From Escherichia coli (GTDB taxonomy: Bacteria; Pseudomonadota; Gammaproteobacteria; Enterobacterales; Enterobacteriaceae), in NCBI RefSeq assembly GCF_003334405.1, contig NZ_QOWM01000066.1: DNA of 418 nucleotides. One strand, written 5' to 3'. This document shows, piece by piece, positions 41 to 418 of this stretch. Positions within the stretch are counted from its first letter, which is position 1. Each line of letters starts with the position of its first letter. Both the position numbers and the translations under genes were made by a program. The notes beneath the pieces are model-generated. The model was not told the DNA's origin. It ran no database searches and saw only the letters and a list, made by a program, of their open reading frames with translations.

Positions 41-418
41 ATGGAACTTAAAAAATTGATGGAACATATTTCTATTATTCCCGATTACAGATAAGCCTGG
101 AAAGTAGAGCATAAATTGTCAGGCATCCTACTATTGACTATTTTTGCCGTTATTTCTGGTGCAGAAAGTTGGGAAGATATAGAGGATTTCGGGGAAACAC
201 ATCTCGATTTCTTGAAGCAATATGGTGATTTTGAAAATGGTATTCCTGTTCACGATACTATTGCCAGAGTTGTATCCTGTATCAGTCCTGCAAAATTTCA
301 CGAGTGCTTTATTAACTGGATGCGTGATTGCCATTCATCAAATGATAAAGACGTCATTGCAATTGATGGAAAAACGCTCCGGCACTCTTATGACAAGAGT
401 CGCCGCAGGGGAGCGATT
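41..418 (+). pseudogene. ISAs1-family transposase (H repeat-associated protein), N-terminal 125 codons, interrupted by an in-frame TAA at 92-94; 3' end lies beyond the window
   Basis: ATG at 41 with upstream SD. Frame 2 translates to MELKKLMEHISIIPDYR then TAA (92-94), then continues with no further stop through 418: [108 protein letters not shown]. Similarity to the family continues on both sides of the stop in the same frame, so this is a nonsense interruption and not a frameshift. After the stop the first in-frame ATG is at 320, which probably explains why the ORF track did not report this frame. If the TAA is a sequencing error this would be an intact CDS. Confidence 0.7.

Follow-up and report, generated by a model that had tools for sequence, protein, structure and literature searches.

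An in-frame TAA near the start of an ISAs1-family transposase frame in Escherichia coli raises the question of whether the gene was inactivated by a genuine nonsense mutation, and of what became of the copy that carries it. The window, that is, the whole 418-nt stretch of DNA that was analysed, is the 5′ end of ybfL (b0705), an H-repeat pseudogene of E. coli K-12. It was found to be 100% identical over 418 nt to E. coli K-12 MG1655 and to many other E. coli chromosomes, and ybfL b0705 has the same sequence and locus context as the window, the annotations differing in coordinates only. Some match to the window was present in 5,214 of 5,426 complete genomes, the median genome having 5 such places, as one expects of a repeated element. 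The gene order in K-12 is rhsC, ybfB, ybfO, ybfC, ybfQ, ybfL, ybfD, ybgA and phrB, and ybfL is the middle one of three head-to-tail tandem H-repeat copies downstream of rhsC, flanked in the array by the 5′ fragment ybfQ and the internally deleted ybfD. The premature stop is already known from the RefSeq annotations: PGAP describes the copy as "ISAs1 family transposase; internal stop", and NC_000913.3 lists ybfL b0705 as a pseudogene (feature 736900-737961). The two annotations give the pseudogene a different extent, PGAP from the ATG at position 41 and NC_000913.3 from a TTG at position 116. A literature search, which did not extend to the original Rhs/H-rpt literature of the 1990s, returned no paper on the ybfL TAA specifically. 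The present analysis confirms the existing annotation of ybfL as a nonsense pseudogene of an ISAs1-family H-repeat, a point of very small importance, and its added value is descriptive, namely the frequency of the allele, the surviving CAA alleles, the otherwise intact element and a second Rhs-linked locus. We consider it very likely that ybfL is an H-repeat transposase copy that was inactivated by one CAA to TAA change and was later recombined to other copies; what was directly observed comprises the stop itself, its location within a conserved domain, the CAA of the relatives, the frequency in the population, the absence of any other lesion and the mosaic structure.

The TAA (ochre) occupies positions 92-94 of the plus strand, on which all features described here are located unless noted, and is in frame with the ATG at 41-43, as had been predicted originally; it is codon 18 and the sole interruption of a 378-codon frame. 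Positions 1-40 form the untranslated 5′ leader of the H-repeat (ISEc1/ISAs1-family) copy, a leader that also precedes ybfQ and ybfD. Translated, positions 41-91 (MELKKLMEHISIIPDYR) give the first 17 codons of the transposase frame, ATG included; of these 17 residues, 16-17 match ydcC, yhhI, ybfD and ybfQ, and columns 1-17 are conserved across the 60 listed full-length homologues. The codons around the stop read CCC GAT TAC AGA TAA GCC TGG AAA GTA GAG CAT AAA TTG, and codons 19-126 (positions 95-418) continue the frame with no further stop. Beyond the window, where the original prediction had proposed that the frame be checked, it remained open at the K-12 locus for 360 more codons up to the normal stop at codon 379. 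Such a long open frame after the TAA indicates one interruption of a conserved frame rather than a stop that occurs by chance in non-coding sequence.

The family assignment, first made from the letters alone, was then borne out by model matches. After Q had been put back at codon 18 of the translation, the resulting 378-aa product matched NCBIfam NF033564 (transpos_ISAs1) with 414.6 bits against a cutoff of 70 (E 2.5e-124), and both Pfam domains were present in the order of ISAs1 transposases, with DDE_Tnp_1_assoc (PF13808; residues 8-94, positions 62-322, i-Evalue 9.9e-32, model 2-88 of 88) at the N-terminus, followed by the catalytic domain DDE_Tnp_1 (PF01609; residues 102-343, i-Evalue 7.1e-31), whose start at positions 344-418 is cut by the window end. 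The alignment to NF033564 begins only at residue 29 and alone cannot place codon 18 in the family core; the extent of DDE_Tnp_1_assoc, residues 8-94, places it inside a conserved domain. The TAA is thus located within a Pfam domain that is conserved and translated in the intact relatives, which is the position expected in a nonsense pseudogene. The motif that the original prediction gave for intact homologues matched ybfD, ybfQ (with one V-for-E change) and the ydcC-type paralogues. The anatomy of ybfL is that of an ordinary nonsense pseudogene, with no departure from it. A scan of the window against Rfam gave no match at E≤1, a scan of the window for promoter and terminator consensus sequences gave chance-level matches only, and two minus-strand ORFs in the window (30 and 67 aa) have no supporting evidence.

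A stop so close to the ATG could also be read as part of a leader, in which case the true protein start would lie downstream, for example at one of two in-frame TTG codons, and the gene would be intact. The TTG at 116-118 (codon 26) is where the ybfL feature of NC_000913.3 begins according to coordinate mapping, and it opens the longest ORF remaining after the TAA; the TTG at 134-136 (codon 32) is taken by some automatic gene callers as the start of a truncated product (MTIFAVISG...), as in proteins P0002 and P0005, whose N-termini are at this codon. These annotations, together with the NCBIfam alignment from residue 29, are what speaks for a downstream start. Against it, the Pfam DDE_Tnp_1_assoc match is aligned from residue 8, and the 60 listed homologues, which all begin at the equivalent Met, align in register and with strong conservation over residues 1-27, so that the refuting case named in the original prediction, a TAA in the leader, does not apply. 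The intact ydcC and yhhI are likewise annotated from the equivalent ATG as 378-aa proteins, and NC_000913.3 itself flags its ybfL feature as a pseudogene. Moreover, a Shine-Dalgarno-like AAGGTGA (positions 30-36) precedes the ATG at 41 by 4 nt, and no comparable motif was seen before either TTG; the sole promoter-like consensus match near TTG 116 is at chance level, and there is no evidence that this codon is used. We therefore hold an intact gene with a downstream start to be extremely unlikely.

The ancestral codon was determined from the relatives of ybfL. As the original prediction had stated, intact relatives carry Gln at codon 18: the codon is CAA in ydcC and yhhI of K-12, and also in the tandem neighbours ybfD and ybfQ, which read GATTACAGACAAGCCTGG in the K-12 array where ybfL reads GATTACAGATAAGCCTGG. 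Among the 60 listed matches of 370-390 aa (65-97% identity) that made up the homologue alignment, out of thousands given by the database search, column 18 is Q in 59 and H in 1. A one-step ancestral sense codon, CAA, can thus be identified for the TAA, and the proposed single C-to-T transition found direct support in rare alleles of the same locus that keep the ybfL-specific flanking SNPs but have CAA. The exact 61-mer with the TAA (window 62-122) was present in 2,678 complete-genome records, several K-12 assemblies included, and its counterpart that has C at position 92 was exact in 5 records, which shows the one-base C-to-T relation directly. Three of these 5 records were inspected (VCSW8, 357900 and MB50; H71, H73 and H74; L006, L007 and L008: 2980-3738). 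All three copies are at the ybf locus and retain all the ybfL-specific flanking SNPs (CDS positions 39, 66, 69, 78, 81, 83, 84, 87, 93, 104 and more), and all carry the ybfD-type 3′ truncation, no intact ybfL-type gene being found among them. These rare CAA alleles of the ybfL type may be either surviving ancestral alleles or revertants.

The same counts bear on the reading that T at position 92 came from faulty sequencing or base calling and that the true codon is CAA, in an intact gene. Apart from being a possibility from the outset, this reading could appeal to the 5 records that have CAA in an otherwise identical 61-mer; however, the TAA version occurs exactly in 2,678 records that were independently sequenced and assembled, and the internal stop stands in the reference annotation. 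An error of this kind, which the original prediction had named as its alternative, can be dismissed for practical purposes.

Comparison with the intact copies of K-12 indicated how little separates them from ybfL. ydcC (b1460) and yhhI (b3484), both of 378 aa, share length, frame, domain pair and Rhs linkage with ybfL and differ from it by 41-48 nt over 1,137 nt; their N-terminus reads MELKKLM(E/G)HISIIPDYRQ. Both have CAA at codon 18, are open throughout and carry Asp28 and Cys35, whereas ybfL has TAA, Gly and Phe at these three codons. According to the column counts and the SNP table against ybfD and ybfQ, the two missense changes, Gly28 (GGC, 122-124) and Phe35 (TTT, 143-145), which span positions 122-145, are specific to ybfL; residue 28 is Asp in 57 and residue 35 is Cys in 58 of the 60 listed homologues. 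Located just downstream of the stop, they are compatible with relaxed constraint. With the ISAs1 family at large, in which ISEc1 is the E. coli H-repeat, ybfL shares the family models, a length of about 1.29 kb, 18-nt repeats and a single ORF; unlike ISAs1 elements generally, the ybfL copy would be unable to make its own transposase, and it is part of a tandem array with the 5′-only fragment ybfQ and the internally deleted ybfD rather than a solitary insertion.

The integrity of the rest of the element was then assessed. In K-12 the ybfL frame has stops at codons 18 and 379 only. No second lesion was found in a sample of 10 full-length TAA copies from various strains, of which five belong to the ybf locus and five to another locus next to yafV, and this could be taken for lasting constraint. 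At the ybf locus, however, only 0-1 nt separates each of the five alleles from K-12, so that the absence of a second lesion has almost no statistical power either way. At the K-12 locus, 18-nt terminal inverted repeats (CAGGGAAAGATCACGTAA / TTTCGTAATCTTTCCCTG, 89% complementary) at L001:3898-3915 and 5170-5187 bracket a 1,290-bp element, the left one beginning about 103 nt upstream of window base 1. A length of about 1.29 kb with short terminal inverted repeats is what characterizes an ISAs1-family insertion sequence. The right inverted repeat overlaps the transposase stop codon, and the flanks of ybfL are other H-repeat sequence, that of the tandem array. The original prediction of an inactivated and decaying IS copy stands in its first part, in agreement with the pseudogene and internal-stop annotation of RefSeq, but hardly in its second, because the TAA is the sole disabling lesion and both ends are intact. 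On these sequence features, the copy is best described as a putative non-autonomous element and not as a heavily eroded relic. Even intact H-repeat copies have reportedly never been seen to transpose (PMC3032704), so that the functional loss may be small.

The TAA allele was not confined to the ybf locus. In STEC and further strains (E2865, O121:H19 16-9255, EC5502, XH2172 and 1070/13; L004:3980-5116, L005:3980-5116 and L012/L013/L018:1580-2716), the exact TAA 61-mer was also found in an H-repeat copy of another Rhs remnant, which adjoins yafV-ivy-fadE. CDS nt 1-260 (window 41-300) are the same as in ybfL in three of these five copies (O121, XH2172 and 1070/13), and there is one private difference each in E2865 (nt 200) and EC5502 (nt 135). 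Beyond nt 260, the five copies differ from ybfL at 18-27 sites, giving totals of 19-28. If differences were uniformly spread, the probability that 0 of 27 would fall in the first 260 of 1,137 nt is about 0.001. From codon 96 on (to codon 378), the O121 copy has 4 differences from yhhI and 26 from ybfL. The clustering of the differences and the likeness to yhhI indicate that the yafV-locus copy of O121 is a mosaic, its 5′ part being of the ybfL type, TAA included, and its 3′ part yhhI-like. The ybf locus itself holds a single copy with the TAA in E2865 and F2_407_2_2 (L002:4041-4799 and L015:1580-2338), which is of the ybfL type to about nt 467 and of the ybfD type thereafter; recombination between adjacent tandem copies has deleted ~1.27 kb here. 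E2865 also lacks the ybfQ fragment. From these patterns we infer that recombination, and not transposition, probably spread the TAA allele, and the presence of the TAA-bearing 5′ segment at two Rhs-linked loci illustrates the exchange of sequence among H-repeat copies.

Such exchange also allows the reverse order, in which gene conversion brought the TAA into ybfL from another H-repeat copy where it had arisen, for instance the yafV-adjacent one, a reading that concerns only the origin of the mutation and not its nature. The identical 260-nt 5′ segment with the TAA at two loci, joined to differing 3′ parts, would fit an import of this kind, as would the retention of ybfL-type 5′ SNPs in the rare ybf-locus CAA alleles. 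However, the 18 loci examined give no direction of transfer, and the inspected CAA alleles are all at the ybf locus, mildly favouring an origin there. An import is thus possible, but we think it rather less probable than not.

Under the preferred reading, nonsense inactivation of ybfL followed by recombination, one C-to-T transition would have turned codon 18 from CAA (Gln) into TAA. Translation from the ATG at 41 would then end after a 17-residue peptide, and the ybfL copy would give no full-length transposase, while the intact ends and the 360 other open codons would make it in principle a non-autonomous element. The TAA allele is fixed in about one half of the E. coli sequenced so far, and the mutation would be old enough for homologous recombination or gene conversion to have carried it into the yafV locus and to have produced the ybfL/ybfD deletion recombinants.

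The open frame after the stop could also suggest that the sequence downstream is still in use. Between ybfL and the yafV-locus copies, dN/dS downstream of the stop was 0.04-0.08, low enough to fit ongoing selection. Low dN/dS as a sign of current function was considered and rejected, since the O121 copy is near-identical to yhhI in its 3′ part and the same as ybfL in its first 260 nt; the low values are better explained as a probable inheritance from functional ancestors that diverged before recombination brought in the 5′ segment with the TAA. A programmed recoding site was likewise rejected: the stop is absent in 60 of 60 listed homologues, and the window gave no sign of an RNA family or of a recoding signal.

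A more specific proposal of this kind is that the TAA is bypassed, by readthrough or by reinitiation at TTG 116, TTG 134 or the ATG at 320-322 (codon 94), and that the allele has been selected. Reinitiation at TTG 116 or 134 would yield a transposase without its first 25-31 residues, which might act as a trans-dominant inhibitor and keep the TAA allele in place, a suggestion drawn by analogy that we find hard to credit. The Tn5 Inh protein is a truncated trans-dominant transposase inhibitor to which such a product could be compared, and its targets would be transposases of the YdcC or YhhI type or the H-repeat-mediated rearrangement of Rhs. If true, the inhibitor would explain why the TAA is the lone lesion in all sampled copies at two loci. 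The sole-lesion count of 10/10 full-length copies, the occurrence of the allele in about every second complete E. coli genome and the in-frame TTG codons 7 and 13 codons past the stop are in keeping with a bypass. Nevertheless, the ybf-locus alleles are only 0-1 nt apart, so no further lesions are expected under neutrality either, and the synonymous differences downstream follow recombination with sequence of the yhhI type rather than evolution that postdates the stop. Readthrough is made less likely by the G after the TAA, a context in which E. coli terminates efficiently. The missense changes G28 and F35 at near-invariant positions fit a relaxed constraint, and in many genomes the 3′ third was additionally lost through ybfL/ybfD recombination. 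A bypassed and selected stop is accordingly very unlikely, and ybfL probably yields no functional protein.

One yafV-locus copy in a draft assembly has lost the stop (L019:1501-2541; GCA_003255705.1, QFRY01000375.1). In this copy a 30-bp in-frame deletion removes codons 9-18 including the TAA, and a second in-frame deletion of 66 bp takes part of the DDE domain, leaving a 346-aa product called a "transposase" (P0023). P0023 was considered as a "repaired" protein of the ybfL type and rejected, because it has two deletions and is not an intact allele; the deletions could be real or could be an assembly artefact.

A more divergent subfamily of ISAs1-family copies (VSIQSLLDYISV...) includes yncI (b1459) of K-12, which like ybfL is an Rhs-linked ISAs1-family pseudogene. 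Where ybfL has a single lesion, the yncI-equivalent copy of E2865 has frameshifts and several stops and is in an advanced state of decay. A copy of this VSIQSLLDYISV... subfamily is located directly upstream of the yafV-locus copy and also of ydcC in K-12, and the divergent copies at L004:2751-3877 and L009:4587-5640 (yncI) have Q at the equivalent codon too.
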